Source: Eledone cirrhosa (Eukaryota). From it: a stretch of DNA of 64,000 nt. Made by a program: the position numbers and the translations under genes. The stretch lies in NCBI GenBank assembly GCA_964016885.1, contig OZ024743.1, forward strand, positions 374,046,001-374,110,000. The letters are read 5' to 3'. Shown here piece after piece: positions 11,871 to 52,781 of the stretch. The notes below the pieces were generated by a model. It saw nothing but the letters and a program-made list of their open reading frames with translations. It had not been told where the DNA came from and ran no database searches. Position 1 is the stretch's first letter, and every line of letters starts with the position of its first letter.

Positions 11871-14800
11871 CTATAGTCTGATGTAGAGTGAAGGCCCATT
11901 TACACGGGCCATTCTCGCCACTTTCACCCATCTTTCATAAAAACGGCTGGGGTGCAGCACCTCTCTCTCCATCCTGATCCTTCTTCCGAAATGATATCGG
12001 AAGAAACGGACCAGTTGTTGGCCAGAGAGAAAGGTGTCTGACCTCAGTCCTTTCAGACGCGTCCACCATACAACCTCTTTCGCCATGGCTATTACGCACA
12101 GAAACACCGCCTCTTCTTCGTTCTTGAAGAGGGGAGGCGGCTTGATCGTTACAATAGACTCGGTGGTCAACCGGATCGGTCCCACCCTTGACAGCAGTTG
12201 TTCGACATAGCCCCACAGATCGGCAATGCCCGAGCAGTGTACCAATGCGTGTGCAACGGTTTCCTCATCGCACACGCATCTGGGACAGATCTTTTTCGAG
12301 GGGTCCCTACCCGGGCGCCCGTGTCTGTAGAGCCTTTCTCTAACGGGCAGAGCCCTTCTGTAGCATTGCCAGGCCAGGGACCTCTGGAAGTTATCCATGG
12401 GTCCCGGGCTGAATGTCCTACCGAACAGGTTGGCCAGTTCGTTTTCCTCCATGCCTAGGGGTTCTCCGAGGGCGTCGTCGCACCTGCTAACCACCAGCCC
12501 TCTATAGAATGACGAGGTGGATTCTCCACTGACAGCCGGGTCCTCCTGCCAGAGAGCCGTGAGCGCCTGGGCACACTCGGTGTGCCAGGTGCCCAGTTTT
12601 CTCGGTCTTTGCTTGACCCAGGATTGCAGCTCGGTGAGTGAGACGAGTCTGGGAAAGGCTCGCCTCACAAACGGGGCCCACACCGGTTGACCGGAGAGGA
12701 ATACGTGAAGGTGCCGTAGCCTTAATGCGTGTTTACGTATCATTAGCCACGGCATCCCCAGCCCTCCTTTCGAAGGGTGTTGACAGCAGATGGATCTCCT
12801 CACCATAGGAGCCCGCTTCTTCCAAAGGAATTGGAAGAGTGCGCGCTCCATTTTGGCGAGCGTTTCCCTTGGGCAAGGCACAACGGTCAGGCGGTAGTAG
12901 ATGACGGACGCTATATAAGTGTTCGCCACCTCCTCCCGACCTTTCAGGGACAGTTTGCACTCGGCCCACTTCTGGGTCAGTGCAAACACCCTGTTCGTTA
13001 CCTCACCCCAGTTCTTCTCCACCTGGAGGTCTGGTCCGAACCAGACCCCGAGCAACTTCACCGGGCCCTCCGTCCAGCGCCCGACGACGCCATCGGAGGG
13101 CATCGATCTGCCCCTCCACGTGCCGAGTTGCAGACCGATCGACTTGTCCAGGTTCAGCTTAGCACCTGTAAACCTTTCCTACTCATCCAGTAAGGTGCCG
13201 ATCGCCCCGATTTCCGAGGCCGTCGACACCATTACTGTTACCTCATCGGCGTAGGCTGACACTGCTTTCCGCAATCCTGGTTCCAACGGGATGCCCTACA
13301 ACAACTCCAACTGCTGCAGCAGTTGCTCTAGAGTCATTACATACAGAAGGGAGGAGAGAGGGCACCCCTGTCGGATGGACCGCGATTTCGAACGGCTCCG
13401 AGAGGTAGCCGTTCACCTTGACCCTAGAGCAGATGCGGCTGCTGTGCATGGCATTGATTCAGCTCCTGAAAACGAGTCCGAATCCTGCCGCCGCTAGCAC
13501 CGCATCCAGGTAACCATGGTCGACCCTATCGAATGTCTTAGATTGATCCAAGTTGATCAGGGCCCCACCAAAGCCGGGTTCGTTCCCAACCCTCTCTATG
13601 ATGTATCGCATGAGGTGGAGGTTGTCGTGGATGGACCTGGACGGGATAGCACATGTCTGCGCATCTCCCACCAGGTTGCCCACGATAAGCGCCAACCTCT
13701 TTGCTAGCACCTTGGCCAAAATCTGTAACTCTGTATTTAGCAGAGTTATGGGCCTGAAATTATTTATATCGTCCCCCTTGTTCTCGTCCTTCCTAACCAG
13801 CGTGACTACGCCCTTGGTCACAGCACAGGGAATTCTCCCGTTCTGTTGCCAGTTGCAGTAGACCGCCTCGAGGAGATCGGGGAACAAGTCCGGCATAGCT
13901 AGATATAGTTCGTATGGAAGACCATCGAGACCCGGGGATTTGCGTTTGCCGCATTGGCTCAGCACGTCCTCTATCTCAGCGGCTGAAATCGGCTCCTCGC
14001 AGGACTTCGCCTCCCTGTCCGAGAGACGCGGCAGGCCGTCGAGGTATGGACCGAAGTCCACATCCCCAACCGGCTCCCCGCCCCTTCCGAACAATCCGGC
14101 AAAGTGCTTTTGAAAAGCATCGCACATCTGCTTAGGTTCAAGGATCACCCGTCCATCCTGGTCTCGCAAAGACCGGATAGTGGATCTGCTCCCTCTTTTG
14201 GCTTCTGTCACGCGGGCCCAGCTAACAGCTTTGGTCCCCTCGTTTCCCAGAGCACGTATTTTGCTTCGGACGATGCAGCCTTCGTGTTTCGCGTCGAAGA
14301 ACTGGCCCAGGGCCGTTCTCGACGCCAGCACTCTGGCCACGTCGCCTCTTCTACACTATCTACCAACTCCCTTTCCTTCCTATTTCTATTTGAGGCTAAC
14401 TCCTTACTAAATTATATAGAGACTACTCTAATCTCTCTTTTGAGAGATCCCCACCGCCTGCTGTTGACAATGGCGCCCGTCAACCGCTCCTTAACTAAAG
14501 TGCTAATCCGGTCCCTGTAAGCCTTACTTGCCGGTAAGGACAAGTTGAGCTTCCAGTAACCGGGTCCCTGTCTATGAGTTCTGTCAAGGTTGACCATGCA
14601 GGTCACTAATTTGTGGTCTGAATAGCCAACCATGCGCATTTTTGGACAACTTAAAAAGTCCTTATCCTTAATTCTAACTAAGAACCTATCTAGGTACGAC
14701 CTAGATGATCCGCTACGATTTGCCCAAGTCCAGGTTGGCGCAGTCGGAAAATCTAGTCGATATCTATCGGCCAGGTCAAATCGACCGATTAACCCTTTGA

Positions 14801-15293
14801 GGCTATTACACCCCTCTGTATCGGGTCAGGCCCCTACGTAGTCCCAGCGTGCATCTAGGATACCATTCCAGTCCCCCACTAATAGCAAGGGGCGGGACGT
14901 CCCTAGAAAAGTCTCCAGACGATGGAAGAAGTCCGGCCGCATTGACCCGAAAGGGCCGTAGGCGGCTACCAACCTAAACGCTCTGCCTTTACCACTGCCA
15001 AGGTCCAGAACCACGAGTCGACCCTCCGGGTCCAAATGTACCATCTGTGTTGCGAGACCCAGATGTTTTTGCAGCAGAACTACAACCCCACCCCCGCCTA
15101 CGGGCTGACAGAGAGATGCGTGCATCTCAAAGTCATCAAAGGTGGGGGCCAGCTGTCGCACGTTGCTGATCCGGGCCTCGCAAATAACCATCACATCTAT
15201 ACGTTGTGACCTGAGGTCATTTAGAAGCATTGCTTGCTTCCAAGTTGAGCCCAGGCCACGCGCATTTAAACAGCCTACTCTTAGCATAGCCAT
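11871..15293 (-). pseudogene. Tx1 ORF2: AP endonuclease, reverse transcriptase, C-terminal zinc finger (disrupted)
   Basis: LNARGL, VGDWN, SDH, PGYWKLN, KSPGLDGLPYE, FRPITLLN, LDQSKTFDRVDH, KLLGVWFG, CPRC..ETVAHALVHC across several frames. Confidence 0.93.
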
Positions 15294-15481
15294 ATTGGTG
15301 GTGAAGAGAAAAGGCACTTACCTCTCAGCGTCCCGGGTATCGGGCTGCACAATTTCCATTAGGGTGGGGGATGGGTTGTTGGGTGGGGTGGTGGTTTGTG
15401 GAAGTGTAGGGGCATCAGTGTGTTGTGTGGTTGGGGAGTTTGGAGTTGTGTGGGTGTTTGGGGAGGGGGTGGGGTAGTTTT

Positions 15482-17115
15482 TTAGGAGGACGCGGTTAAT
15501 GGGCCCGACGCAGGGGGGGGGCCCACGTCCTCTTTAAAATTGTTTTTTAAAGTTTTATAGGTGTCCTGTGGGGCCTTAATCATTTTGAGGTGGGGGAAAT
15601 CCCCTGCCTGGGTGAAGTTAGGCCCTTGTGTTTTTATTAGATTGTTGTTGTACACAATGTTTAACAGTTTTTTGTTTCTTGTGTTTATGTATGTGTATGC
15701 ATGTTTTTGTTTTTGTGTGGTGTTTTTTGTTTGCTGTTGTTGTGAGCTCTTTTGTGTTGGTGTCAGTGTTATGTTTTGGGGAGGGGTTGTTTTCATTTGT
15801 GTGTCTGAGGTGTGTTTTCTTTTTTTTCTTTTGATTGTGTGGAAGTGCTCCTCCTCGTCTGACGACGAACTAGGGTCATATTCCGCGTTGGAGGGGAGGG
15901 GTATATTTTCGGGTTGTGTTTGCGGTGCGGGTGTTTTGGAAATTGTTTTTGTTTTTTGAGTGGGGGGGGGGGGGGTGATGGGTTGGACATTGTTTTGTTT
16001 TGGTTTGAGCTGTGGTGGTTGTTTTTGTAGTGGTAGTTGTGGTGAGTTGTGCAGTTGTTGGTGGTGTAGGCAGGATTGGGGTTTTCTTATTAAGTTGGGG
16101 ACAGACAGCCCTCAGGTGACCTCTGGTTCCGCAGAGGAAACACGAGGGCCGCCTACCCTCAACGGTAATGTTGATGAAAGTTTGGTCATCCAGTATGACG
16201 CGTTCAGGGATCTGGGCGATCCTTTCGGGCCTCATTTGAACTACAAGTTCGAGGCTCGTTCCACTGAACGCGTCACCCGATGCCTTTCCCATGGACACCA
16301 GCGTGTCATCATCCAGGTCCAAGAAACCTGTCAAAACCCACCATATATGTCCATAATCGGCAGGATGGTGTGGATTTTTTTTTGTGTGTTCTTCTACCCA
16401 TGTACGTAGGGTAGAAGGTGTATGCGGTGGATGTGATTGGTTTGATGGACAGTTTCACTGCTGTGTCCCTGTCCTTCATGAGAATGGATAGACTCCCGTA
16501 GAGTCTATCCTTCTGAATGAAGGTGATGTCCTTCATGACGTCTTTTAAACCAGCTCTATCTCACTCTGTGATGGTTGAGCTGGTTTTTTGCTTTTATTCG
16601 AGATGGTCCTAAACATGACAGTGTTTAGGAGTCTCTGGCTTTTTAGTTCCGGGGGGAGGGGGGATCGTGAATGAACCATTTTCCCCGTACACTATATATT
16701 TTTTGGCATCTGCCAGTAGCTCCTTCGCTTTGGTTATATCTACTGGCAGATAGTCGAGGGTTTTCCTTGCCGTCTCGGCGCAGGAGAAATTTTTTTTGTT
16801 TGTGTTGCTGTTGTAGTTGGTGGTGTTGTTGTTATCATTGTTGTTGTTATCACAGTTATTGGTCTTGTTGTTGTTGTTATTGTTATTGGTGTTGTTTTCG
16901 TCCGTCGCATTGTTGTTGTTATTGCTGTTGCTGGTGCCGCTGGTTCTTTGGGTTGTTGCCATGGCAACGTCAAGTTGTCGGTCAACAGGTGGAGAAAATC
17001 CTTCCCCTGGCTGACCTTTCTTTTTGACCTCTGCTACTGTGACAGTGGAAGGGGGAAGCTGTAAGTTTATCTTCCCCTTTCCTCCTTCGAATTTTGGTGA
17101 AGAAGCTTCAGCCAT
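15482..17115 (-). pseudogene. Tx1 ORF1 gag-like nucleic-acid-binding protein (frameshifted)
   Basis: Asn-rich N-terminus, YPTYMGRR, EGRRPSCFLCGTRGHLRAVC zinc knuckle, Thr/Pro-rich tail. Confidence 0.85.
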
Positions 17116-25290: not shown

Positions 25291-27847
<2,557 letters not shown>

Positions 27848-28084: not shown

Positions 28085-28152
<68 letters not shown>

Positions 28153-28155
<3 letters not shown>

Positions 28156-31100
28156 TATAGACATAGAATATTCGAAAATATTCTGTATGTTTATAATAAA
28201 CATTTTGAAGACCTAATCGCTATAGAATAGAATACGTCACGTATTACAATTAGATTCTCGATAAAAGCAAGGGAAGTAAATCTACGCGTTTCATTCTTAT
28301 TAGAAATCGTCAGGACTACATATCCAGTGCTTTCATCGAGAATGACACAGCTAGAGACTTATAGAATACTTAGCTGTGTACAGGAACTGGTTTGAAAGAG
28401 CGGTTGCCGGTCCGGCAGAAATTAGAAATTGGAATAAATGCTCTGAAATAGCGATATATATGTGAATATAGACATAGAATATTCGAAAATATTCTGTATG
28501 TTTATAATAAACATTTTGAAGACCTAATCGCTATAGAATAGAATACGTCACGTATTACAATTAGATTCTCGATAAAAGCAAGGGAAGTAAATCTACGCGT
28601 TTCATTCTTATTAGAAATCGTCAGGACTACATATCCAGTGCTTTCATCGAGAATGACACAGCTAGAGACTTATAGAATACTTAGCTGTGTACAGGAACTG
28701 GTTTGAAAGAGCGGTTGCCGGTCCGGCAGAAATTAGAAATTGGAATAAATGCTCTGAAATAGCGATATATATGTGAATATAGACATAGAATATTCGAAAA
28801 TATTCTGTATGTTTATAATAAACATTTTGAAGACCTAATCGCTATAGAATAGAATACGTCACGTATTACAATTAGATTCTCGATAAAAGCAAGGGAAGTA
28901 AATCTACGCGTTTCATTCTTATTAGAAATCGTCAGGACTACATATCCAGTGCTTTCATCGAGAATGACACAGCTAGAGACTTATAGAATACTTAGCTGTG
29001 TACAGGAACTGGTTTGAAAGAGCGGTTGCCGGTCCGGCAGAAATTAGAAATTGGAATAAATGCTCTGAAATAGCGATATATATGTGAATATAGACATAGA
29101 ATATTCGAAAATATTCTGTATGTTTATAATAAACATTTTGAAGACCTAATCGCTATAGAATAGAATACGTCACGTATTACAATTAGATTCTCGATAAAAG
29201 CAAGGGAAGTAAATCTACGCGTTTCATTCTTATTAGAAATCGTCAGGACTACATATCCAGTGCTTTCATCGAGAATGACACAGCTAGAGACTTATAGAAT
29301 ACTTAGCTGTGTACAGGAACTGGTTTGAAAGAGCGGTTGCCGGTCCGGCAGAAATTAGAAATTGGAATAAATGCTCTGAAATAGCGATATATATGTGAAT
29401 ATAGACATAGAATATTCGAAAATATTCTGTATGTTTATAATAAACATTTTGAAGACCTAATCGCTATAGAATAGAATACGTCACGTATTACAATTAGATT
29501 CTCGATAAAAGCAAGGGAAGTAAATCTACGCGTTTCATTCTTATTAGAAATCGTCAGGACTACATATCCAGTGCTTTCATCGAGAATGACACAGCTAGAG
29601 ACTTATAGAATACTTAGCTGTGTACAGGAACTGGTTTGAAAGAGCGGTTGCCGGTCCGGCAGAAATTAGAAATTGGAATAAATGCTCTGAAATAGCGATA
29701 TATATGTGAATATAGACATAGAATATTCGAAAATATTCTGTATGTTTATAATAAACATTTTGAAGACCTAATCGCTATAGAATAGAATACGTCACGTATT
29801 ACAATTAGATTCTCGATAAAAGCAAGGGAAGTAAATCTACGCGTTTCATTCTTATTAGAAATCGTCAGGACTACATATCCAGTGCTTTCATCGAGAATGA
29901 CACAGCTAGAGACTTATAGAATACTTAGCTGTGTACAGGAACTGGTTTGAAAGAGCGGTTGCCGGTCCGGCAGAAATTAGAAATTGGAATAAATGCTCTG
30001 AAATAGCGATATATATGTGAATATAGACATAGAATATTCGAAAATATTCTGTATGTTTATAATAAACATTTTGAAGACCTAATCGCTATAGAATAGAATA
30101 CGTCACGTATTACAATTAGATTCTCGATAAAAGCAAGGGAAGTAAATCTACGCGTTTCATTCTTATTAGAAATCGTCAGGACTACATATCCAGTGCTTTC
30201 ATCGAGAATGACACAGCTAGAGACTTATAGAATACTTAGCTGTGTACAGGAACTGGTTTGAAAGAGCGGTTGCCGGTCCGGCAGAAATTAGAAATTGGAA
30301 TAAATGCTCTGAAATAGCGATATATATGTGAATATAGACATAGAATATTCGAAAATATTCTGTATGTTTATAATAAACATTTTGAAGACCTAATCGCTAT
30401 AGAATAGAATACGTCACGTATTACAATTAGATTCTCGATAAAAGCAAGGGAAGTAAATCTACGCGTTTCATTCTTATTAGAAATCGTCAGGACTACATAT
30501 CCAGTGCTTTCATCGAGAATGACACAGCTAGAGACTTATAGAATACTTAGCTGTGTACAGGAACTGGTTTGAAAGAGCGGTTGCCGGTCCGGCAGAAATT
30601 AGAAATTGGAATAAATGCTCTGAAATAGCGATATATATGTGAATATAGACATAGAATATTCGAAAATATTCTGTATGTTTATAATAAACATTTTGAAGAC
30701 CTAATCGCTATAGAATAGAATACGTCACGTATTACAATTAGATTCTCGATAAAAGCAAGGGAAGTAAATCTACGCGTTTCATTCTTATTAGAAATCGTCA
30801 GGACTACATATCCAGTGCTTTCATCGAGAATGACACAGCTAGAGACTTATAGAATACTTAGCTGTGTACAGGAACTGGTTTGAAAGAGCGGTTGCCGGTC
30901 CGGCAGAAATTAGAAATTGGAATAAATGCTCTGAAATAGCGATATATATGTGAATATAGACATAGAATATTCGAAAATATTCTGTATGTTTATAATAAAC
31001 ATTTTGAAGACCTAATCGCTATAGAATAGAATACGTCACGTATTACAATTAGATTCTCGATAAAAGCAAGGGAAGTAAATCTACGCGTTTCATTCTTATT

Positions 31101-33714
31101 AGAAATCGTCAGGACTACATATCCAGTGCTTTCATCGAGAATGACACAGCTAGAGACTTATAGAATACTTAGCTGTGTACAGGAACTGGTTTGAAAGAGC
31201 GGTTGCCGGTCCGGCAGAAATTAGAAATTGGAATAAATGCTCTGAAATAGCGATATATATGTGAATATAGACATAGAATATTCGAAAATATTCTGTATGT
31301 TTATAATAAACATTTTGAAGACCTAATCGCTATAGAATAGAATACGTCACGTATTACAATTAGATTCTCGATAAAAGCAAGGGAAGTAAATCTACGCGTT
31401 TCATTCTTATTAGAAATCGTCAGGACTACATATCCAGTGCTTTCATCGAGAATGACACAGCTAGAGACTTATAGAATACTTAGCTGTGTACAGGAACTGG
31501 TTTGAAAGAGCGGTTGCCGGTCCGGCAGAAATTAGAAATTGGAATAAATGCTCTGAAATAGCGATATATATGTGAATATAGACATAGAATATTCGAAAAT
31601 ATTCTGTATGTTTATAATAAACATTTTGAAGACCTAATCGCTATAGAATAGAATACGTCACGTATTACAATTAGATTCTCGATAAAAGCAAGGGAAGTAA
31701 ATCTACGCGTTTCATTCTTATTAGAAATCGTCAGGACTACATATCCAGTGCTTTCATCGAGAATGACACAGCTAGAGACTTATAGAATACTTAGCTGTGT
31801 ACAGGAACTGGTTTGAAAGAGCGGTTGCCGGTCCGGCAGAAATTAGAAATTGGAATAAATGCTCTGAAATAGCGATATATATGTGAATATAGACATAGAA
31901 TATTCGAAAATATTCTGTATGTTTATAATAAACATTTTGAAGACCTAATCGCTATAGAATAGAATACGTCACGTATTACAATTAGATTCTCGATAAAAGC
32001 AAGGGAAGTAAATCTACGCGTTTCATTCTTATTAGAAATCGTCAGGACTACATATCCAGTGCTTTCATCGAGAATGACACAGCTAGAGACTTATAGAATA
32101 CTTAGCTGTGTACAGGAACTGGTTTGAAAGAGCGGTTGCCGGTCCGGCAGAAATTAGAAATTGGAATAAAGGCTCTGAAATAGCGATATATATGTGAATA
32201 TAGACATAGAATATTCGAAAATATTCTGTATGTTTATAATAAACATTTTGAAGACCTAATCGCTATAGAATAGAATACGTCACGTATTACAATTAGATTC
32301 TCGATAAAAGCAAGGGAAGTAAATCTACGCGTTTCATTCTTATTAGAAATCGTCAGGACTACATATCCAGTGCTTTCATCGAGAATGACACAGCTAGAGA
32401 CTTATAGAATACTTAGCTGTGTACAGGAACTGGTTTGAAAGAGCGGTTGCCGGTCCGGCAGAAATTAGAAATTGGAATAAATGCTCTGAAATAGCGATAT
32501 ATATGTGAATATAGACATAGAATATTCGAAAATATTCTGTATGTTTATAATAAACATTTTGAAGACCTAATCGCTATAGAATAGAATACGTCACGTATTA
32601 CAATTAGATTCTCGATAAAAGCAAGGGAAGTAAATCTACGCGTTTCATTCTTATTAGAAATCGTCAGGACTACATATCCAGTGCTTTCATCGAGAATGAC
32701 ACAGCTAGAGACTTATAGAATACTTAGCTGTGTACAGGAACTGGTTTGAAAGAGCGGTTGCCGGTCCGGCAGAAATTAGAAATTGGAATAAATGCTCTGA
32801 AATAGCGATATATATGTGAATATAGACATAGAATATTCGAAAATATTCTGTATGTTTATAATAAACATTTTGAAGACCTAATCGCTATAGAATAGAATAC
32901 GTCACGTATTACAATTAGATTCTCGATAAAAGCAAGGGAAGTAAATCTACGCGTTTCATTCTTATTAGAAATCGTCAGGACTACATATCCAGTGCTTTCA
33001 TCGAGAATGACACAGCTAGAGACTTATAGAATACTTAGCTGTGTACAGGAACTGGTTTGAAAGAGCGGTTGCCGGTCCGGCAGAAATTAGAAATTGGAAT
33101 AAATGCTCTGAAATAGCGATATATATGTGAATATAGACATAGCTGTACACAGCTAAGTATTCTATAAGTCTCTAGCTGTGTCATTCTCGATGAAAGCACT
33201 GGATATGTAGTCCTGACGATTTCTAATAAGAATGAAACGCGTAGATTTACTTCCCTTGCTTTTATCGAGAATCTAATTGTAATACGTGACGTATTCTATT
33301 CTATAGCGATTAGGTCTTCAAAATGTTTATTATAAACATACAGAATATTTTCGAATATTCTATGTCTATATTCACATATATATCGCTATTTCAGAGCATT
33401 TATTCCAATTTCTAATTTCTGCCGGACCGGCAACCGCTCTTTCAAACCAGTTCCTGTACACAGCTAAGTATTCTATAAGTCTCTAGCTGTGTCATTCTCG
33501 ATGAAAGCACTGGATATGTAGTCCTGACGATTTCTAATAAGAATGAAACGCGTAGATTTACTTCCCTTGCTTTTATCGAGAATCTAATTGTAATACGTGA
33601 CGTATTCTATTCTATAGCGATTAGGTCTTCAAAATGTTTATTATAAACATACAGAATATTTTCGAATATTCTATGTCTATATTCACATATATATCGCTAT
33701 TTCAGAGCATTTAT

Positions 33715-33720
<6 letters not shown>
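28153..33720 (-). mobile_element. Retrozyme-like array: 16 tandem 311-bp hammerhead units plus ~1.85 inverted units, in (TA)n
   Basis: Unit starts at 28153, 28464, 28775 ... 33129; inversion from 33143 to ~33720; one hammerhead per unit. Confidence 0.9.
28276..28319 (-). ncRNA. Type I hammerhead motif, repeated every 311 bp (plus-strand copies at 33207-33250 and 33518-33561)
   Basis: gtagtc-CTGACGA-t ttct aata agaa t-GAAA-CGCG-TA-gatttac. Confidence 0.8.
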
Positions 33721-33770
<50 letters not shown>

Positions 33771-38294: not shown

Positions 38295-41200
38295 TTACAG
38301 ATATATACTCAGAGTAGGCCCATTCACTCGGGCCATTCTTGCAACAAAATGCTGGGAAGAGAGCACTTCCCTCTCTACTCTGATTTTCCTTTTCAAATGA
38401 AATTTGAAAAAGTCAATCAGAGCATCACCGAAGAGGTAGGTGCTCGTCTTCAGCCCTTTCAAACGTGTCCACCATACTATCTCTTTCGCCATGGCCACCA
38501 GGCAGATAAAAACTGCCTGCCCTTCCCGGCTAAAGGAGGAGGGCGGGGCAATCCTCACGATGGACTCAGATGATAGCCGGATCCGTCCTAAACGCGACAG
38601 CAGGTGTTCGACATAAACCCACAAGTCAGCAATTTTCGGACACTGGACGAGTGCGTGCAGGACGGTTTCGTCGCCCTGCGCGCATCTCGGACATTCCCGG
38701 CTGACGGCACCTCCATGCCTGTAGAGTTTATCCCGAACTGGCAAGGCTCCTCGGTAGCACTGCCAGGCCAGAGATTTCTGGAAGTTGTCCATAGGCCCTG
38801 GCCCGAAAGTTCTTCCGAAGAGATTGGCTAGTTGATTTTCGTCGACACCTAGAGTTTCCCCAAGTACGTCGTCGCTCTTCCCCTCCACTAATCCTCTATA
38901 GAACGCCGAGGTGGAGTTTCCACCGATCACATTGCCCGATTGGTCGAGGGCTGTGAGCGCCTGAAGACATTCCAGTCTCCAGGCGCTCCCTCTCGGTCTT
39001 CGCTTGACCCAGGACTGCAGCTCCGTCAAGGAAACGAGCTGGGGAAATACGTGTCTAGCAAACGGCGACCACACCTGATCACCGTCGAGGAAGAGGTGGA
39101 GATGTCGTAGCCTGAGCGCGTGCCTGCGCATCATCAGTCACGGCATGCCCAGCCCTCCACGTAGCGGGTGTTGACAACAGATGGACCGCCTGACCATCGG
39201 AGCGCGTCCCTTCCACAAAAAGCGAAAGAGCAAACGCTCCAGCGCAGTTAGGCGAGGCTTAGGACAAGGTACGACGGTCAGGCGGTAGCAGATGACAGAC
39301 GCGATGTACGCGTTAGCCACCTCCGCTCGACCTTTCAGGGATAGCTTCCTCTCCGCCCATTTCTGGGTGAGAGAAGCCACCCTGCTCGTCACCTCGTCCC
39401 AGTTTTTGTCCGTCTGGAGGTCCGGACCGAACCAGACCCCTAGCAATTTAACCGGTCCGTCTGTCCAGCGTCCGACGACGCTGTTGGACGGCATGGACCT
39501 GCCTCTCCAGGTGCCGAGCTGCAGGCCCACTGACTTTTCCTGGTTGATCATTGCTCCTGTCACCGCTTCGTATTCTCTTAGTGTAGTGCCGATCGCGTCG
39601 ATGTGTTTGGCGTTCGACACCACTACGGTGACATCATCCGCATATGCTGACACGGATCTTCCGCATCCTAGTTCGCTCGGGATGCCCCTCAACGTCTCCA
39701 GTTTGTGCAGTAATGGCTCGAGAGTCAATACGTACAAGAGGGACGAGAGGGGACATCCTTGGCGGACCGAGCGCATGATGTTGAACAGTTCCGACAGGTG
39801 ACCGTTCACTCTCACCACAGAGCAGATGTCGCTGTGCATGACAGCGATCCAGCCTCTGAAGACGGGCCCAAAGCCAGCCGCCCTCAGTAATGCCGCTAGG
39901 TAACGATGGTCAACCCTATCGAAAGCTTTCGACTGATCTAAATTGATCAAGGACCCACCCGTGCCAGGTTCCCTAGCTACCTTCTCCACAATGTATCGCA
40001 TGAGGTGGAGGTTGTCGTGGATGGATCTGTCGGGAATGGCGCATGTCTGCGCCTCTTCCACCAGACCACCAACGACAAGCGCCAACCTCTTTGCTAGCAC
40101 CTTGGCCAAAATCTTGAACTCTGTGTTTAGCAGAGTTATGGGCCGGAAATTATCTATGTTATCCCCCTTGTTCGGATCCTTTCTCAGCAGTGCCACCGCT
40201 CCTCGGCTCACAGAACTGGGAATTCTCCCGTTCTGTTGCCAGTTGCAGTAGACGTCCGCCAAGAGGCCTCCGAACAAGTCTGGCATCTGTACGTAAAGTT
40301 CATAGGGCAGACCATCCAAACCAGGCGATTTACCCCTTGTGCAGCCAGTCATTGCCTCCCTTACTTCAGCGGCTGTTATCGGCTTTTCACAACACTTCGC
40401 CTCAGTGGCCGAGAGCCGCGGCAGTCCGTCGAGGTAGACACTAAAGTCCATCCCTCGACCCGGCCCACCGCTGCCCCCGAACAGCTGAGCGAAGTGTCGC
40501 TGAAAAGCATCACACATTTGCCCGGGATCGAGTAGCATGCGCCCGTCGTGGTCCACCAAAGACCGGATCGTGGCTTTGTTGCCACGACGCGCCTCCGCCA
40601 CTCGGGGCCAATGAACGGCTTTCGTCCCCTAGTGTCTGAGAGCACGCACCCTTGCTCTGACAACGCACCCTTCGTGCTTTGCATTGAAGAATTGGTCAAG
40701 GGCCAATTTCGCCGCAAGCACGTCGGTCGCAATGCCTTTGCTAAGCGCCTCGTCTAATTTTCTAACTAGTTCTCCCTCTGCTCTATTTTTCTCTATTGCT
40801 AAAGCCTTACTAAACCTAATGGATTCTATTCTAATCGCTCTTTTCAGAGCAAACCACCACTTGTTGTTGACGATGGCCCCCGTCAACGCCCGCTTAACTA
40901 GTTTGCTAATCCGGTCTCTGTAGGCCTTGCGCGCTGGTAAGGACGCGTTTAGCTTCCAGTAGCCGGGTCCTCGTCTATGAAGCCTATCTAAGACAAGCAC
41001 ACAGATCACGAATTTGTGGTCCGTGTAGCTGACTATCTTGAATTGTGGACAGCCTATGCTAGACCTATCTATTTCCCTATAAAATACTCTATCTAGATAT
41101 GATCTGGATGACCCTATCCGATTTGTCCAAGTCCACATTGGCACATTCGGGAAATCCAATCGGTACCTGTCAGACAGTTCAAAACGCCTGAGCAGGTTGG

Positions 41201-41695
41201 TGAGGCTCTTGCACCCGCCACCCCTATCCGCTAATCCCACACAGTCCCAGCGTGCATCTAAGATCCCGTTCCAGTCTCCCACTAACACTAAAGAGCGGGA
41301 CGTTCCAAGAAAGGTCTCCAGACGCCGGAAGAAATCAGGCAGCCCTGCTCCTGTCGGGGCATAGACGGCCACTAGCCTGAAAGCTTGCCCGTCTCCGCTG
41401 GTCACGTCCAGCACCACCAACTTACCCTCTGGGTCCAGGAAGATGGCCCGTATGGCGAGATCCAAACCTCTCCGAAAAAGCACAGCAACTCCTCCCCCGA
41501 TCCAGGACGGCTGGGAGATGCGTACACATCGTAGCCGCCGAAGATCGGTGCGAAGGCCCGTGCTTCGGAGATTCTGGTCTCGCTGATGGCCACTACATCT
41601 ATGTTTAGTGACCTGAGGTCGTTGAGCTGGTGACCCTGCTTCCATGACGACCCCAAGCCACGCGCATTTATGCTACCTATTCTGAGTGAGGTCAT
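38295..41695 (-). pseudogene. Tx1 ORF2 APE-RT-zinc finger (a few stops/frameshifts)
   Basis: INARGL, ISET, VGDWN, YLD, TDH, RQGCPLS, AYADDV, CPRC..ETVLHALVQC. Confidence 0.95.
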
Positions 41696-42059
41696 GTTTA
41701 AAATAGAGTGGAAAAGATGGGAAAGACCACTTACCGTACTTTTCGTAGAGGAGGGATGGTTTTTACATCCCTTTTCACTTGATCGTCTGGTGAAGGGACC
41801 GTTGAATCGTCCATTCGGCTGGTCATCGGCTCTTCTATGAGTATGTCCGAATATACTCTTCGATTGATAGTTCCTCCTAGGTCTCTGAAATCACCAACTG
41901 CGTTGGGGAATTACGTTTTAATGTTTGTGTATTGTTTCTGTGCTATTTTTAGCAGTCTTATGTTAGTTGGCGTTTTGATTGGTGCTGGTATTATGTAGTC
42001 GTGTTGTGAAATGTCTGTGTGTTCAATTATGTAAGTCATTAGTTTCTTGTTGTGTGTAT

Positions 42060-43829
42060 TTATTGCCGTGCATTTGTTTTTCTGGGTGTGGGGTGTGGTT
42101 CTGCTATTTTCTTGTCGTTGTTGCTGGGTGTGTGTGTTTTGTTGTTGTGTTTGCGATATTGGTGCTTGTGGTGTTGAGGTGTTGTTGTTGGTGGTGGGGT
42201 TGTCGCCGGTGGTGATGGTGGTGCTAGTGTGGGTGGTGATGGTGTTGGTGGTGTTGCTACTGTGAGTCTCTTTGCAGTAGACTTTACCCTTTTTTCATTT
42301 CTTTCCTCCCTTTTCAAAGGCGACGATGCGCTGCTTCTGCGTTTGTGCCTTCTTACGACCTTTTGCCATCCCTCTCCCACCTCACACTCCATGTCTGATT
42401 CTGTGAGGTCGGGGAGGGGTACCAGCTCCACTCTTTCACTTGTTGTTGTTGGTGATGTTTGCACTGGAGTCTCTGTTGCAGCTGCATTTGGTATTGCTGT
42501 TGTTGTTGTTGTTAATACTTCCACTGCTGCTGCTGTTTTTGATTTCCGTGGCGTGGGTATGGGTGCCACGGACCTATCGTTCCTGGTTGCTGCTTGTCCT
42601 GTTGCTGGTAGCCGTGGAGCCGGTTTCGGAAGGAGGGGGGATTTCTCCTTTCTCATGGTCTTCTCGTTGCAGAAGGCCCTGAGGTGAGTCTTCGATCCAC
42701 AGCGAAAGCATTTCGGGCGTTTGCCCTCAACACTTATGGGAAGTTGAGTGCCTTTATCGAAGTCTATCACATCCGGGATAGCTTCGATGCACTCCTGGTT
42801 GGTTTGGATTAACATCTCAATGGAAGTGTCGACCCAATCTTCTCTTACTTTTTTCTGTACTTGCAGTACAGTTGTTTTGTCCTCGATTCCGACGAGGACA
42901 GACGCGGCCAGCCAAGAAGGGGCCATCCCGGGGGGGACGTGGGTCAGTTTGACCCTCACAATTTTTTGCCCGCAGTAGGAGGGCACCAACACCATTTCCT
43001 CGCTCCTTAGGGTCACTACGGATTGAGCCTTTGCCTCCTGGGGTGTGGAAAAAAGTACGTCTACGGTGGCATATTTCTTGCCTCGGGTGATGTGTGTTTT
43101 CCGCCGCCACACAGACCCCAAGGCTTTTTGTATTTGAGCCTCTGTGGCTCTTTCCACCCTACGGGATTTTGTACTTACTGTACGGTACGTGACCGTACAG
43201 TGCTGTTGGGTTTCGAAAAATTTTTCCGCTGCCTTGCAGATTGCTCGGTGTCCAGTTTTTGTCACCATCTTCTTCGCTTCCTCTAATTCCTTATTTGTTA
43301 TGAGGATTGTTTCCAGGTTCTTCGCGATACCTGCAAACGAGATTGGTTTTTCTTTGCTGCTGTTGTTGTTGTTGTTGTTGTCGTCAGAGCTGCTGTTACT
43401 TTTGTTGTTGCTGCAGGTACTACGACTACTGCCGCCGCCGCTGTTGCTGTGGTTGTTGTTGTTGTTGCTGCTGCTAATGCTGTTGTTGTTTATGCTGCTG
43501 CTGATGCTGATGCGGCTGCTACTGTTGTTTTCATTGTCACTGTTGCTGTTGTTATTACGGCTGCTATTATTCCTGACGTCAGACGAATGAAATGGGTTTT
43601 CGTATTTCCCGCACACCTGTTTCGTCGTCGTTGTCGTCGTGGAGAAACCTTGCACGCTTTGCACGAGACTTTTCTTTTCTGTCGTCGCTTGCGAAAGAGA
43701 AGGGAGGGAGAGAGACACATTTAAAGAAGGGAGGGAGAGAGACAATCTTCTCTCTGCTGTAGTGACGATTGAGGAAGAAAAAGACGGAATGAGTGGGAGT
43801 GACCTATAAAAATTCTTTTTCGTAGCCAT
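42060..43829 (-). CDS. Tx1 ORF1 gag-like protein with CCHC zinc knuckle
   Basis: Long open frame (ATG at 43829); Asn/Ser-rich N-terminus; EGKRPKCFRCGSKTHLRAFC; GWQKVVRR; C-terminus possibly frameshifted. Confidence 0.85.
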   Translation of the reverse strand: MATKKNFYRSLPLIPSFSSSIVTTAERRLSLSLPSLNVSLSLPSLSQATTEKKSLVQSVQGFSTTTTTTKQVCGKYENPFHSSDVRNNSSRNNNSNSDNENNSSSRISISSSINNNSISSSNNNNNHSNSGGGSSRSTCSNNKSNSSSDDNNNNNNSSKEKPISFAGIAKNLETILITNKELEEAKKMVTKTGHRAICKAAEKFFETQQHCTVTYRTVSTKSRRVERATEAQIQKALGSVWRRKTHITRGKKYATVDVLFSTPQEAKAQSVVTLRSEEMVLVPSYCGQKIVRVKLTHVPPGMAPSWLAASVLVGIEDKTTVLQVQKKVREDWVDTSIEMLIQTNQECIEAIPDVIDFDKGTQLPISVEGKRPKCFRCGSKTHLRAFCNEKTMRKEKSPLLPKPAPRLPATGQAATRNDRSVAPIPTPRKSKTAAAVEVLTTTTTAIPNAAATETPVQTSPTTTSERVELVPLPDLTESDMECEVGEGWQKVVRRHKRRSSASSPLKREERNEKRVKSTAKRLTVATPPTPSPPTLAPPSPPATTPPPTTTPQHHKHQYRKHNNKTHTPSNNDKKIAEPHPTPRKTNARQ

Positions 43830-44047
43830 GTTTTTTTTTTTTTGTTTAAAATAAATATTGGGCACAAAACCCCAATAAGCAGTTATTTAACCCCGAAGGG
43901 CCAAATAACGGGCAGAAAGACCCCTCTCACGAGGAGGAGGGTGTTTTTGTCTACAAGTTGGTAAAAGTTTAAAACAATTTACAATTGTTATAGCGTTCAA
44001 AATTTACAATACCTTACAGAGCCGAGCCTCCGTCAACCATAGCATTC

Positions 44048-45084: not shown

Positions 45085-48000
45085 AAAACCCCGTGACCAA
45101 GAAATACCGGGATGGTGGCCGGCGGGGAATAGCCGTGTCTCTAGGGGAGAACGACCCCTCTAGTCTTGGTTGACACTCGTTGTAGAAGTGGTAACACGAA
45201 ATGATTACCCCTTGGCGGATAACGATAAAACGCGACTAAATAAAGTAAATGTCTAATGATAAAATCTCATACCGGATCGGCCGTCACCCGGGTAAAAAAG
45301 GGCCGCGTCCCTCAGAGAGGAACCGGACTGGGGTCGAAAAATCAGCTAATGGTTCAAACCTTCCCATCACTTCGGAGCTGGAGACCTCCCATAACCGGAA
45401 TACTCCTACTGTTGGCCCTCCATGCTCACCACCAAGAAATCCAAAGAAAAAGAGAGAAAAATGGTCAAGGGAAGATAATAAAGAAGTCCTTGAGGCTTTC
45501 TACACTGCCATGTACTACCCATCAAATACATCCAATACAGAACAGACATATATCAACTGGAAAAAGAAACATCCCGAAAACAGAGGCTATATTGACAGTA
45601 ACAAACTAGCCAATATACGAAGAAATATTGTAAGAAAAAAGTTACTAACTGATATAGAAATTGATCAGATCAAGCTATTAGCACAAAGTCAGCGAAGGGA
45701 AAATGAAACATGTGTCAGTGAAAACGAGGTAAACAGTAACACTTCGAACCCCAGGGTTGGGGCGGAATCACTGGCAACAGAACAAATTAAAGAAAGGATC
45801 GAAAAAGTGGAGGGAGTGCATGCTCAGGATGAAACTCCAAATGAAAATAATGAGATCGTAAATGATAAAGAAATGAATGAGAATGAACTTGCCAACTTGA
45901 AGGATGAAATTATGATCGAATGGATGAAAATGAAAGAATCTGACATGGTGCAACGAGACACCCTCCCTAAGATCCAGAACTCCAAACAGAACCAAAAGAT
46001 AATACACAAGACTAACATAATTCTCAAAAACATTATCATCACAAACAAACTAAACATTACTGATTTAAATCATCTCTATTATGCATCGGCTAAAGTCACC
46101 ACTCACTTATGTGGAGTGAAGATGAAAAAACAAAGGAATTCCCACAAGAAATCTACTTGGCAAGATAACATCAATCGCCAAATAAACCTTCTCCGATCTG
46201 ACATAGAAATTTTAACAAACTATAAAGTAGGTGAACATGTTAAACAAACTAAACTTAGAAAATTGAAAAAAAAGTACAGTATAAAATCAACATGTGACAT
46301 AGACATGCTGATAGAAATAATCAAGCAAAAAGTGTCGGCCAAGCTGCTCGTATAAGGCGCTTTGAAAAACGATCTAGATTCTATAAGGACAATAATATGT
46401 TCAAAAACAACCAAAGAAACTTCTACAGAAAAATTGGTAAGTCAACAATAACTGCTAAATCAATACCACCCAAGGAGGAAGTGCAAGAATTCTGGGAAAA
46501 GATCTGGGCCGAAGAAAAAGTTCATAACATACATGCCCCATGGATAGACAGACAAATGAAAGATACAGCTCACCTTGAGGAACAAATATGGGAAAATATA
46601 ACAGTTGAACAGTTGCGCTTGGCTCTAAGAAAAACCAGCAAATGGAAATCCCCAGGAAAAGACAAAATACAAAACTTTTGGATAAATGCCTTCACAGAGT
46701 CTCATGAGCTGTTAGCCCAACTTTACAATGAAATAGTTAAGGAGCCAGAAAAGATACCTTCATGGCTAGTTAACGGCATTACATTCCTGCTTCCGAAGAA
46801 TGATGAGACAAACAATCCCCAAAATTACAGACCGATAACTTGCTTGACCACAATGTATAAAATTTTAACATCAGTCCTAACTGAATACACATATGACCAC
46901 CTGATAACAAATGACCTATTTCCCATTGAGCAGAAAGGGTGTAAACGAGGCTCATATGGCTGTAAGGATCAGCTTTTGGTTAACAAAATGATACTGGAAG
47001 ATTGTCATAATAGACACAAAAATCTATCGATTTCTTGGATAGATTATAAAAAAGCATTCGATAGTTTGCCACACAGTTGGATTGAAAAATGTTAAGAGAT
47101 TTTCAAAATATCCCCCGTTGTCAGGAGGTTTTTGTCATTCAGTATGAAGACATGGAAAACGACACTCCTTTTGAATAGTGAAACAAAATCACTGGAAGCT
47201 GGAGAAGTTAATATTAATTGTGGAATTTTTCAGGGTGACTCTTTATCACCGCTTTTATTCTGCATCGCACTTATACCATTAAGTAAAATGCTCAATGAAA
47301 CAAAACATGGATATAAAGTATATGACAAAACCATTAATCACTTGTTCTATATGGATGGCCTGAAACTATTTGCAAAAAATGATGAACAATTGCAAGGTCT
47401 ATTATCCACTGTGGAGCAGTTCAGTGATGACATTAAAATGGAGTTTGGACTAGATAAATGCGCCAAAGCAACGTTCACCAGAGGAAAGCTGCTGGAGAGT
47501 TCAGACATTAATCTTGATCGGGGGAACGTGATAAGAGAACTTGATCAAGAAAAAACTTACAAATATCTAGGTGTTTGTGAAGGAGACGGAATCAAGCACT
47601 CGACAATGAGGGAAAGGATAAGGAAGGAATGTTACCGGAGAGTAAGAGCAATCTTAAGAACGGAATTGAATGCAAGGAATAGGATCGATGCCATAAACAC
47701 GCTTGCCATACCAGTAGTAACCTACAGTTACAATGTCATCAACTGGTCAAGCACAGAGATCCGTAGGCTCGATACAAAAATTCGAAAATTCTTAACCATG
47801 CACAGAATGCATCACCCTAAGGCAGATATAGATAGAATATATCTCCTTAGGAAAGAAGGAGGACGTGGGTTAATCCAGTTAGACATTGCGTTGAAAACTG
47901 CAACAATTGGATTATCTACATATCTAAGGGAATCACATGATTGGATGATCAAACTCGTTTTGAAACACGAAAGCATCAAAAGATCATATTCCATTACAAA

Positions 48001-49066
48001 AGATGCACAAAGATACAGCAATGGACTACAAATTTCAGAAGTCCCATTTACTGCTGAAATGGAAAACACAGAAAAAGAAAAGCAGGTAAAAGTAACTGCA
48101 AAGAAAGAACTGCTACAGAAACTGGCTAAGAAATGGCAAGAAAAGCCTCTGTATGGAAAATACCCAGAGCGTGCTAACAATCCTGATGTTGACAAAACTT
48201 TAACCCATGAGTGGTTGGCATCCTCTGGACTGAAATCGGAGACTGAAGGACTGATTATATCAGCACAAGATCAGTGTCTGCCAACAAAAAATTACCAACC
48301 CAACATAATAAAAAATGGATGCAGCCCATTATGCCGTGTATGCAAAAAACAACCAGAGACCATTGACCATATAATTTCAATGTGCAGTACTATAGCTCCA
48401 ACCGAATACCTAAACAGGCATGACAGAGCTGCACAATACATACATTAGATAATGTGTAAGCATTTTGACCTGCCCCATCAAAAGAATTGGTGGGAGCATC
48501 AACCATCTCCCATACTTGAAAAAGATCACATCTCAATCTTGTGGAACTTTAGCATCCAAACAGACCGAAAAATAGATGCAAATAGACCTGCTATAATATT
48601 GAAGGACTTTAAAAAAGGGTATGTCTGTTAATTGATATATCTGTTCCAATAGACAAGAATGTATGTATAAAAACATTTGAAAAATTGAGCAAGTATAAAG
48701 ACCTGGAGATAGAAATTGGAAAAATGTGGAAATTGAGAACTAAAACAATACCAGTGGTTGTAGGCGCTCTGGGAATGATACCTAAGGGGTCTAATGATTA
48801 CTTATCGCAAATCCCAGGAAACCCGCGTATAGGAGAAATACAAAAGATAGTACTAATGGGAACTGCCCATATACTAAGGAAGATTCTGTCAATATAAGTA
48901 CATCACAAGTCTAAACACTAAAGATGCATGTGTGAGTATGTATGTTCTTTCTTGAACATGGCGGACCTTGTTGTCTCTTGAGGTCACTGGTTGTGACTTG
49001 GTGATAACTCGTATGAACATAAAGCAAGATAAATGCAACTGTAATAATAATAATAATAAAAATAAT
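45085..49066 (+). mobile_element. Near full-length R4/Dong-like RT-RLE retrotransposon ending in (TAA)n
   Basis: Single broken ORF 45249-48897; 3' UTR; (taa)n tail from ~49042. Confidence 0.92.
45249..48897 (+). pseudogene. RT-RLE polyprotein with stops/frameshifts
   Basis: KWSREDNKEV N-terminus, WKSPGKD, YRPITCL, DYKKAFDS, GIFQGDSLSP, YMDG (mutated YMDD), CRVC..HIISMC, RHD, NRP..LIDISVP, KYKDL, PVVVGALG. Confidence 0.92.
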
Positions 49067-49345: not shown

Positions 49346-52300
49346 CTATAGGCGCATGGTCAGAGTAGGCCCATTCACACGAGCCATTCTCGCCACATTC
49401 ACCCACCTTTTAGCAAATGTACTGGGGGGCAGCATTTCTCTCTCCATCCTCACCCTCCTTTCCAGGTGAAACTTGAAGAAGTTGATGAGGGATTGGTCTG
49501 TCTTTAGTCCTTTCAGCCTGGTCCACCATATAATCTCTTTCGCAACTGCCACCAGGCAGAGGAAAATGTCCTGCTCTTCCTGACCTAAGGAAGGTGGCGG
49601 CTCGATCTTCACTATGGACTCGGCCGATAGCCGGATTCGTTCCACACGCGACAGTAGCTCTTCGACATAACTCCACAACTCAGTAATGCACGGACATTGG
49701 ACAAGTGCGTGCAGAACGGTTTCGTCGTTCTGTGCGCATCTTGGGCAGGTCCGTCTGACAGCACTTCCGTGCCTGTAGAGTTTATTCCGAACCGGCAGGG
49801 CCCCAATGTAGCACTGCCAAGCGAGGGATTTCTGGAAATTGTCCATCGTCCCCGGCTCAAAAGTCCTCCGGTACAGACTAGTCAGTTCGACTTTGTCGAG
49901 GCCCAAAGCTTCTCCGAGTGCGTCATCGCACTTGCCCACCACTAATCCTCTATAGAACTCGAGAGTGGAAGTTCCACTGATCGCATTGCCCGCTTGGTAG
50001 AGGGTAGTGAGTGCCTGGCAACATTTCAGGTGCCAGTCACCCAGTCTCGGTCTCTTCTTGACCCAGGACTGCAGCTCAGTCAAAGAAATGAGCTGCGGAA
50101 AGGCCCGTCTGATAAACGGCGACCACACCTGTTCACCATTGAGGCAGAATATCTGGAGATGTCGCAGCCTCAACGCATGTCTGCGCATCATTAGCCACGG
50201 CATGCCCAGCCCTCCGCGTAGAGGGTGCTGGCAGCAGATGGACCGCCTCACCAACGGAACTTGTCCCCTCCACAAGAATTTGAAGAGGAGCCGTTCCAAC
50301 TTGACGAGGCGCGGACGGGGCAAGGCACGATGGTTAGGCGGTAGTAGATGACGGCGCGATGTACGCATTCCCCACCTCCGCGCGACCTTTCAGTGATAGC
50401 TTCCTCCCAGCCCATTTTTGGGTGAGACTGGCTACTCTGCTCGTTACCTCGTCCCAATTCTTTTCCACCTGGAGGTCTGGTCCGAACCAAACCCCGAGCA
50501 ACTTTATCGGTCCGTCCGTCCAGCGCCCCACGACGCTGTTGGACGGCATGGGCTTGCCTCTCCAGGTTCCGAGCTGCAAGCCCACCGACTTTTCCGGGTT
50601 AAGTTTGGCTCCTGTCAACCTTTCATATTCCTTCAGTAAGGTGCCGACCACCTCGATTTATGAGGTGTTCGACACCATCACGGTGATGTCGTCCGCATAA
50701 GCCGACACCGCCTTTCCACGTCCCGGTTCGAGCGGGATGCCCTGCAACAGCTCCAGCTTCCGCAGTAAAGGCTCGAGAGTCAATACGTACAGAAGGGAAG
50801 AGAGAGGGCACCCTTGACGGACCGATTGGGAGAGCCGAAATGGTTCCGAGAGGTGGCCATTAACCTTGACCACCGAGCGTGTGCCGCTGTGCATTGCAAC
50901 GATCCAGCTTCTAAAGACAGGGCCGAAGCCAGTTGTTTTGAGGACAAACTCCAGATACCGATGGTCGACCCTATCGAATGCTTTCGATTGATCTAAATTG
51001 ATCAGTGCCCCACCGAAGCCAGGTTTACACCCTACCCTCTCTATGATGTATCGCATGAGGTGGAGATTGTCGTGTATGGACCTGGCTGGGATTGCGCAAG
51101 TTTGCGCCTCCCCAACCAAATCCTCGACGACAAGCGCCAATCTCTTTGCTAACACCCTGGCCAAAATCTTAAACTCTGTGTTGAGCAGAGTTATGGGCCT
51201 GAAGTTGTCTAATGTATCCCTCTTGTTCTCGTCTTTCCTTATCAGCGTCACCACTCCCCTGCTCACAGAACTGGGAATACTCCCATTCTGTTGCCAGTTG
51301 CAGTAGAGTGCTTCGAGGAGTTCGGAGAACAAGTCTGGCATATTTACGTAAAGCTCGTAGGGCAGGCCATCCAAACCGGGTGACTTGCGCCTCATGCAGC
51401 CGACAAGGACGTCCTGAATTTCGGCTGAAGTAATCGGCCTTTCGCAGCGCTCAGCATCGACCGTCGAGATGCACGGCAAGCCGTCAAGGTAGGGACTGAA
51501 ATTCGCTACTCTCTCTGACTCGCCACTCTCCCTGAACAACCGAGCAAAGTGCTGGCGAAAGGCCTCACACATCCGCTTGGAATCGCTTATCTCGTGTCCG
51601 TCTCGGTCCGCCAAGGACCGAATTGTGGTTTTATTACCACGCTGCGCCTCCGCCACGCGGGCCCATCGAACAGCTTTAGTTCCCTCGCTTCTCAGCGCAC
51701 GCGCCTTAGCTCTGACAATACAACCTTCGTGTTTGGCGTTGAAGAAATGGTCTAATGCCATTCTCGCCGCTAGCACGTCAGTTGCGATGCCACTACAAAT
51801 AGCCTCGTCTAACTTATCTACCAGCTCCCCCTCCTTTCTATTTTTCTCTAACGCTAGTTCTTTGCTGAACTCTATCGAAGTTACTCTAATCTCTCTTTTG
51901 AGAGCCCCCCACCATCTGTTGTTGATGATCCCCCTGTCAACTTTTGTTTAACTAAATTGTTGACTCGGTCCCTGTAAGCCTTACGTGCCGGAAATGACAT
52001 GTTCAGCTTCCAGTAACCCGGTCCTAACCTACGCGTTTTATTTAGGTCGACCGTACAGATCACAAATTTGTGATCTGAATAGGCGACCGTTTTAAAAAGT
52101 GGACAGCCCACACTATTTCTATCTATTTTCCTAATGAAGATCCTGTCTATATACGATCTAGATGACCCCATTCGGTTGGTCCATGTCCATACTGGCACAT
52201 TGGGGAAATCTAGTCGATACCTGTCAGACAGTTGGAACTGGCTGAGTAGGTGCTTGAGGCTTTTGCACCCCCCGCTCCTATCGGCTACTCCCACACAATC

Positions 52301-52750
52301 CCAGCGTGCGTCTAAGATGCCATTACAGTCCCCCGCTAACAGTAAAGGGCGAGACGTACCCAGAAAGGTCTCCAGGCGCCTAAAGAAGTCAGGTCGTCCG
52401 GCCCCTGTAGGGGCGTAGACGGCCAGCAGTCTAAAGGCACCACCTTCGCTACTGCTCACATCCAAGACCACCAACTTACCGTCCGGGTCCCGGAAGATCG
52501 ACCTTACCTCGAGATCCAGTCCTTTCCTAAACAGAACTGCCACCCCACCCCCCATTCCCGGCCTGCTAACAGATGCGAGAATCTGATAGTCGTCGAAAAT
52601 GGGGGCTAGTGCGCGCGTGTCGGAAATTCTGGTCTCGCTTACGGCAATCACATCCATTTCCAGCGACCGGAGGTCGTTGAGCAGGCGACCCTGCTTCCAG
52701 GGTTACCCCAGGCCGCGAACATTTAAACTTCCTACTCTTAATATGGCCAT
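49346..52750 (-). pseudogene. Tx1 ORF2 APE-RT-zinc finger (frameshifted)
   Basis: VSET, AGDCN, YID, SDH, RQGCPLS, AYADDI, CPRC..ETVLHALVQC. Confidence 0.93.
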
Positions 52751-52781
52751 ATTGGTAAGCTAAGAGAGAGAGAGGGAAGGT

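Follow-up and report, generated by a model that had tools for sequence, protein, structure and literature searches.

Animal non-LTR retrozymes are described as non-coding tandem arrays with units of 150-450 bp, a GC content below 50% and one type I hammerhead per unit, features shared by the array reported here, and a circular template together with a PLE partner has been proposed for them (PMC7229834; 10.64898/2026.07.22.740005). Published work already covers retrozymes and their circles as well as the PLE-plus-circle model (PMC7229834, PMC4209133), and the hypothesis that PLE enzymes reverse-transcribe circular RNA for more than one unit dates from Cervera 2014, 2020. The text of Li 2026 ties retrozymes to pLTRs and PLEs by phylogeny only, also invokes local satellite-type growth, and carries no analysis of insertion ends (10.64898/2026.07.22.740005). 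Minimal hammerheads lying close together on opposite strands are mentioned in PMC4209133; PMC9940879, in the portion available, adds nothing further on mechanism. PLEs are described as leaving an inverted 5'-truncated copy, a tail of 30-40 nt and a bias towards (TA)n (PMC8557442, PMC3846280), the tail corresponding in vitro to the spacing of two RT start sites, with extension of both target strands (PMC11167929).

The window analysed here is a stretch of 64,000 nucleotides from Eledone cirrhosa (contig OZ024743.1). A 311-bp periodicity is perfect over 28152-33142 (16.05 units), and from 28153 onwards 16 full units are identical apart from a T>G substitution at 32171 (plus strand, unit position 154), the sole substitution in the element, just as the original prediction, made from the letters of the DNA, had it. 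This tail-less arm (28152-33142) lies on the minus strand in RNA sense, and extends from an inner 5' end at unit position 116 to an outer 3' end at 130, unit positions being numbered from the predicted cleavage site. Directly adjoining it at 33143-33720 is a reverse-complement arm of 578 bp (1.86 units, 100% identity; about 1.85 had been predicted), which runs on the plus strand in RNA sense from an inner 5' end at position 210 to an outer 3' end at 165. Its last 35 nt (33686-33720, plus strand, unit positions 131-165) form a tail between the two fixed ends; the tail opens with an internal AT run similar to the target. The (TA)n target extends over 28087-28151 on the left and 33721-33770 on the right; with respect to target-site duplication (>4 bp when present), the flanks of the element consist of (TA)n. 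The array has no ORF of 100 aa or more, a GC content of about 0.34 and no LTR structure. It is non-coding and, having no ORF with RT and GIY-YIG, non-autonomous. The 311-bp unit falls within the 150-450 bp range of animal non-LTR retrozymes, a fit in size already pointed out in the original prediction. Four LINEs within the window are unrelated to the array. Contigs of the independent data set X1 do not cover the inversion junction of this locus, a gap that carries no information on polymorphism.

A type I hammerhead is predicted every 311 bp on the minus strand, one per unit as had been claimed. The first occupies 28254-28343, with the core CUGACGA at 28307-28313, GAAA, and a predicted GUA cleavage site between 28283 and 28282; the inverted arm contributes two more on the plus strand, with cores at 33213 and 33524. 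The type I core elements CUGANGA, GAAA and NUH are present and stem I is open. N7 is C, U or A depending on the lineage, and the hammerhead core is invariant. The anatomy comprises a long stem I with an internal loop, a U-U at the base of stem II, a 1-bp stem III and a palindromic CGCG loop. Axolotl HHR_Amex1 and HHR_Amex2 likewise have a 1-bp stem III closed by a palindromic loop and a U-U at the stem II base, and axolotl retrozyme hammerheads with both oddities (weak palindromic stem III, stem II U-U) cleave as dimers according to PMC7229834. The predicted fold of the 166-nt hammerhead region has z=-4.3 against shuffles and that of the circular monomer z=-3.6 (0 of 100 shuffles as low), while the outer part of the extended stem I pairs with a predicted probability of 0.9-1.0. 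Counting against the motif, stem II is paired with a probability of no more than about 0.1 in the ensemble prediction; Rfam returned no hammerhead match, neither at gathering score nor at E<=10. Judged by sequence features, the locus classes as a non-LTR retrozyme on all those tested except Rfam and behaves like a PLE insertion.

Young, dispersed insertions of the kind seen in the window number at least 1,041, this being the count of exact junctions genome-wide between the position-165 end and (TA)n (reversed control, 0). The family comprises at least 13,080 hammerhead cores in the 3.0-Gb genome, counted with a pattern that does not capture the 295G haplotypes, to which 25 of 79 sampled elements belong, and the window's own haplotype is represented by 233 cores. 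An older sister family with a 322-nt unit has 990 tail junctions. We sampled 14 loci selected on unit identity alone (set 1) and 97 regions with 98 elements selected by the 165 end only (set 2); in the tail-anchored sets one flank is TA by construction. L077 was dropped (wrong side fetched), and L168 was kept in alignment A1 in the wrong orientation, the effect being lower pairing counts only. Variant counts leave out the 25-30 nt flanking inversion junctions. Data sets X4, X5 and X6 (run type unrecorded) each hold one 340-nt contig with a single haplotype; 340 nt equals 310+30, a closed cycle if k=31, and these contigs were given no weight regarding circles.

A two-armed, head-to-head structure was found in 90 of the 98 tail-anchored elements (51/58 and 39/40), and in all 88 two-armed elements with a visible far end (50 and 38) the opposite arm ends at 130-139. 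Each such element is laid out as (TA)n, two arms with their 3' ends outward, and (TA)n again; only one arm bears the tail, whose length is the 26-35 nt between the 165 and 130-139 ends. In set 1, where both ends are visible in 12 loci, the pair is 139/165 in ten, 139/170 in one and irregular in one. The mid-unit ends noticed in the original prediction are fixed across the family. The 130-139 end lies on an AT run inside the unit; in 43 of 64 cases the arm ends at 130, and in 21 it takes in the run. Among the remaining 10 of the 98 elements, L208 and L209 were later closed with the same 130-139 end, four are single-armed, one has a 19-nt tail arm and three are without clear structure. The arms meet with an overlap of 0-6 nt at 41 of 63 junctions and of 8-31 nt at 8, and none of the inversion junctions is recurrent among 64 loci. 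Since they combine an inverted 5'-truncated copy, a one-sided tail and a (TA)n target, the retrozyme insertions have the inverted-copy-plus-tail geometry that is the signature of PLEs. Although recorded in the original prediction, the inverted piece and the ends inside the unit had been overlooked there as the key to this signature. The family actively supplies an animal genome with multi-kilobase palindromes.

PLEs of the same genome were collected by a GIY-YIG scan and a query with a PLE RT fragment, and 80 loci were compared. They comprise several Neptune-like families, Poseidon-like families and one young Hydra-like family, the clade labels resting on motifs described in Craig 2021, without a tree. 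Neptune-like PLEs (L140, L130) show the same insertion geometry as the retrozymes. The retrozyme tail and hairpin (see below) are absent from all 80 loci, among which the partner PLE was not found. When these loci were compared for homology to a pLTR, the only match was one of 25/28 nt over the hammerhead core to the young 758-aa Hydra-like family, which has no match in the tail region; this family was rejected as the partner, as it shares the hammerhead core but ends at a single site without a tail. A search for a PLE ORF upstream of 30 sister-family loci gave no match, a weak test with two query proteins.

Evidence on the template comes from the haplotypes. Both arms carry the same haplotype at 49 of 51 loci (permutation mean 6.4, maximum 14, 10,000 permutations), with 28 haplotypes among 79 well-covered elements. 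Units depart from the haplotype of their locus at 184 of 271,529 positions (0.068%), and the difference between loci is 0.98%. In a lineage of nine loci marked by a 2-nt deletion and enumerated genome-wide, all units at each of three loci share an additional variant (5/5, 6/6 and 5/5) that is absent from the other members, although for any such "private" variant the parent locus could be missing from the assembly. A new variant in every unit of both arms is most simply explained if the whole insertion derives from one monomer. The first two candidates tested for genome-private variants were lineages of 5 and 9 loci, not private, and a search for a parent singleton fixed in a daughter locus gave no clear case. 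There are exceptions to uniformity: in L098 the haplotype switches at the same turn in both arms, in L068 it switches inside one arm, and in L205 haplotypes alternate; mid-copy editing or a template switch may account for L068, and dimer circles for L205. Some long arrays were remodelled later at the DNA level, as shown by amplification in L081 (an arm of about 45 units) and L058 (a 7-unit duplication) and by a later duplication in L057. Because of these cases the 16-unit arm in the window, which lies in about the 2% tail of the exponential length distribution described next, may likewise include later growth.

Arm lengths are exponential, with means of 3.8 and 5.5 turns at 50 loci (KS p 0.49 and 0.60) and of 4.8 and 4.6 turns at 38 further loci, giving an estimated processivity of about 1.2-1.7 kb per arm. 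There is a weak correlation between the lengths of the two arms (rho about 0.3, p 0.04-0.05), and the longer arm can be either one (20/50, 18/38), which excludes a simple fold-back. Fold-back self-priming (Arkhipova 2013) was rejected as a general route, the arms being unequal either way and their inner phases unrelated, in spite of the longer overlaps at 8 of 63 junctions. Inner ends are spread evenly over the unit (chi-square p=0.77); 7 of 202 5' ends fall no more than 5 nt from the cleavage site, where 7.1 would be expected. At 1,129 crossings of the cleavage site (747+382) no sporadic indels were seen save one beside an inversion junction, other differences being lineage-wide or single substitutions. 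Jumping of the enzyme from one cleaved linear monomer to the next was also rejected, as there are neither scars nor run-off at position 0. The rolling-circle reading of the original prediction, with one template, gains support from the haplotype sharing between arms, the scar-free cleavage site and the exponential arm lengths.

Several signs point to an RNA stage. Lineage variants cluster at N7, the base of stem II, loop II and stem I, where pairing is preserved; none of 28 variable sites falls in the 12 core positions, an absence that chance alone gives about one third of the time. In RNA sense, fixed A>G changes outnumber U>C by 12 to 3 when counted by event (p=0.006) and by 7 to 3 by distinct site (p=0.10, not significant), and singletons number 9 and 13. 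The A>G excess could be due to editing or to selection for G-U pairs, and since both operate on RNA it is counted as an RNA-level sign; the A>G changes that recur at positions 20, 259 and 276 of the unit may be A-to-I editing of the stem-I duplex fixed in DNA. Just upstream of both ends lies an 8-bp hairpin with a UUCG loop (28165-28184, minus strand). The sister family retains the hairpin through compensatory changes: three of its pairs are changed on both sides and the loop is GCAA or GCCA in place of UUCG (kinship inflates such scores). The hairpin is a candidate enzyme-binding element.

Our preferred reading, to which we give a probability of roughly 70%, is that the element is a non-autonomous retrozyme and that a PLE enzyme, starting from both target strands, reverse-transcribes its predicted circular monomer over and over. 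The array would be transcribed, the hammerheads would cut out monomers, probably as dimers, and a host ligase would circularise them. By analogy with the PLE literature, the enzyme would bind near the conserved hairpin and nick both (TA)n strands. The fixed arm ends at 165 and 130-139 would be the two priming sites, the AT run at 130-139 being able to pair with the target. Each arm contains a random, exponentially distributed number of turns, with means of about 4-5.5, that run straight past the cleavage site; rolling-circle synthesis followed by end-joining of the arms would produce this pattern, and some long arrays were then remodelled as DNA. Two published results weigh against the scheme: the anole PLE prefers uncleaved RNA as its dominant substrate in vitro (Frangieh 2024, PMC11167929), and in vitro cleavage was not seen for 8 of 9 Xenopus retrozyme dimers (Li 2026, 10.64898/2026.07.22.740005). 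A more specific version, in which each insertion records one circular RNA and two PLE RTs working from opposite target strands, simultaneously or sequentially, we advance tentatively and rate below even odds; if true, it would account for the tandem, inverted and tail structure of PLEs generally.

A PLE enzyme might instead twin-prime a linear multimeric RNA, either a read-through transcript or an RNA-to-RNA rolling-circle concatemer, the circle not being the direct template. Scar-free junctions and random 5' ends are equally expected in that case, the in vitro preference of the anole enzyme speaks for it (PMC11167929), and the switches in L098 and L068 suit a mixed linear template. By plain read-through, however, a new variant cannot become fixed throughout an array, and short parents cannot give rise to long arrays again; the 11 minor variants recurring in more than one element stand mostly on different haplotype backgrounds (unit order compared for part only), and the distinctness of all inversion junctions among 64 loci also tells against it. 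We regard a linear template as unlikely, with the proviso that an RNA concatemer copied from a circle is indistinguishable at the DNA level from the circle itself.

The other rivals place multiplication in the DNA or in the assembly. Insertion of a short seed by a PLE followed by local unequal crossover and conversion, the satellite route of Li et al. 2026, could draw on the visible duplications in L058, L057 and L081, but minor variants are absent altogether from 30 of 73 elements, those of the shared type that duplication leaves behind are confined to 7 of 73, and both arms are multi-unit with exponential lengths, rare variants in common and intact ends; as a general explanation it is quite improbable. 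Still less credible is DNA-only satellite spread through extrachromosomal circles or a Helitron-like rolling circle, with the hammerhead as a passenger: a DNA circle would also yield homogeneous multi-turn arrays, yet the two fixed ends 26-35 nt apart, the head-to-head arms with random inner ends, the occurrence of this geometry in PLEs too, the strand-asymmetric variants and the hairpin covariation are left unexplained. Collapse of diverged units by the assembly is a negligible prospect, even though the copy number at this locus was read from the assembly: between-locus differences of 1% are retained, as are unit-specific variants in arrays of up to 45 units, and the independent X1 contains these haplotype variants as well as numerous distinct inversion joints. 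Reverse transcription of a circular monomer remains our preferred account. With more than 1,000 young events, the statistics favour a monomer template per insertion and PLE-type priming on both strands; if the rolling-circle reading is true, they would support at the DNA level a copying route known until now as a proposal. Exact start sites, a candidate binding hairpin and a defined 311-nt substrate make the origin of PLE tandem, inverted and tail structures testable.

Twin priming of L1 resembles these insertions in that both target strands prime cDNA and the head-to-head arms are joined by microhomology; it differs in its linear polyadenylated template, variable second priming site and target-site duplications. 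With EN+ PLEs (Neptune, Hydra, Poseidon), as described in the texts available, the retrozymes share the inverted truncated copy, the one-sided tail, two start sites, the (TA)n target and a hammerhead upstream of the tail (PMC8557442, PMC3846280, PMC11167929). In contrast to those elements they have no ORF, run for as many as dozens of complete turns where PLE tandems are partial, and carry a canonical long-stem hammerhead where the PLE type is minimal. Chlamys PLEs such as MRC1 are also non-autonomous with multicopy head-to-tail insertions (Craig 2021, PMC8557442), but belong to green algae and mostly lack hammerheads (PMC8557442); they resemble their partner at the 3' end, whereas no such partner match was seen among the 80 PLE loci here. 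For published retrozymes RNA has been demonstrated, whereas the E. cirrhosa family is described here from DNA, and the texts on published retrozymes do not report head-to-head arms, fixed ends, a tail, (TA)n targeting or per-insertion haplotypes (PMC7229834; 10.64898/2026.07.22.740005). We found no published report of two-armed tailed retrozyme insertions or of per-insertion haplotype tests, though supplements may hold such structures. The kind of element is known, and its insertion anatomy and the per-insertion evidence appear to be new.

At one insertion of the 311-nt retrozyme (L205) a single variant is present in alternate units of both arms (4/9), which might reflect either a dimeric circle or an ambiguous template base. 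At two others (L068 and L098) the haplotype, that is, the set of variants common to the units of one insertion, changes inside a single insertion. These switches might stem from a linear template of mixed origin, from an edited or exchanged template, or from later conversion. Unit positions 1-2, directly 3' of the predicted cleavage site, carry four alleles, each lineage-wide, and are possibly a ligation-site hotspot. The sequencing runs X4, X5 and X6, labelled as three organisms other than the source species, each gave one 340-nt contig, of a single common retrozyme haplotype.

An older sister family (L145-L174; L050:1603-1910) has a unit of ca. 322 nt with 75-80% likeness to the retrozyme and the same tail, the stretch between the two fixed outer ends; 990 tail junctions of this family were found. 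Its arms are short and its hammerhead is often decayed.

The window contains a second head-to-head element (26795-27735), unrelated to the retrozyme and flanked by (TA)n, with a unit of 466 nt, arms of 407 and 536 nt, a right-hand tail of ca. 70 nt and its own hammerhead-like core near 27403 (+). L135 and L183 contain relatives. Additional hammerhead repeat families occur at L131, L132, L135 (tandem units of ca. 490 nt plus an inverted arm), L136, L191 and L194.

Other repeats in the window are broken LINE copies, with APE endonuclease, RT and zf-RVT matches at 11871-16454, 38295-43886 and 49346-54752 and an RT match only at 45249-48448, and a satellite of 66-bp period (56552-64000; at least 113 copies, 91% matches).

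A young and abundant family of Penelope-like elements (L256-L275) has a 3' region consisting of a very long simple repeat, with one end site only. The core of its minimal hammerhead is nearly identical to that of the retrozyme, and its many intact ORFs of 758 aa carry a C-terminal endonuclease and Hydra-like motifs.
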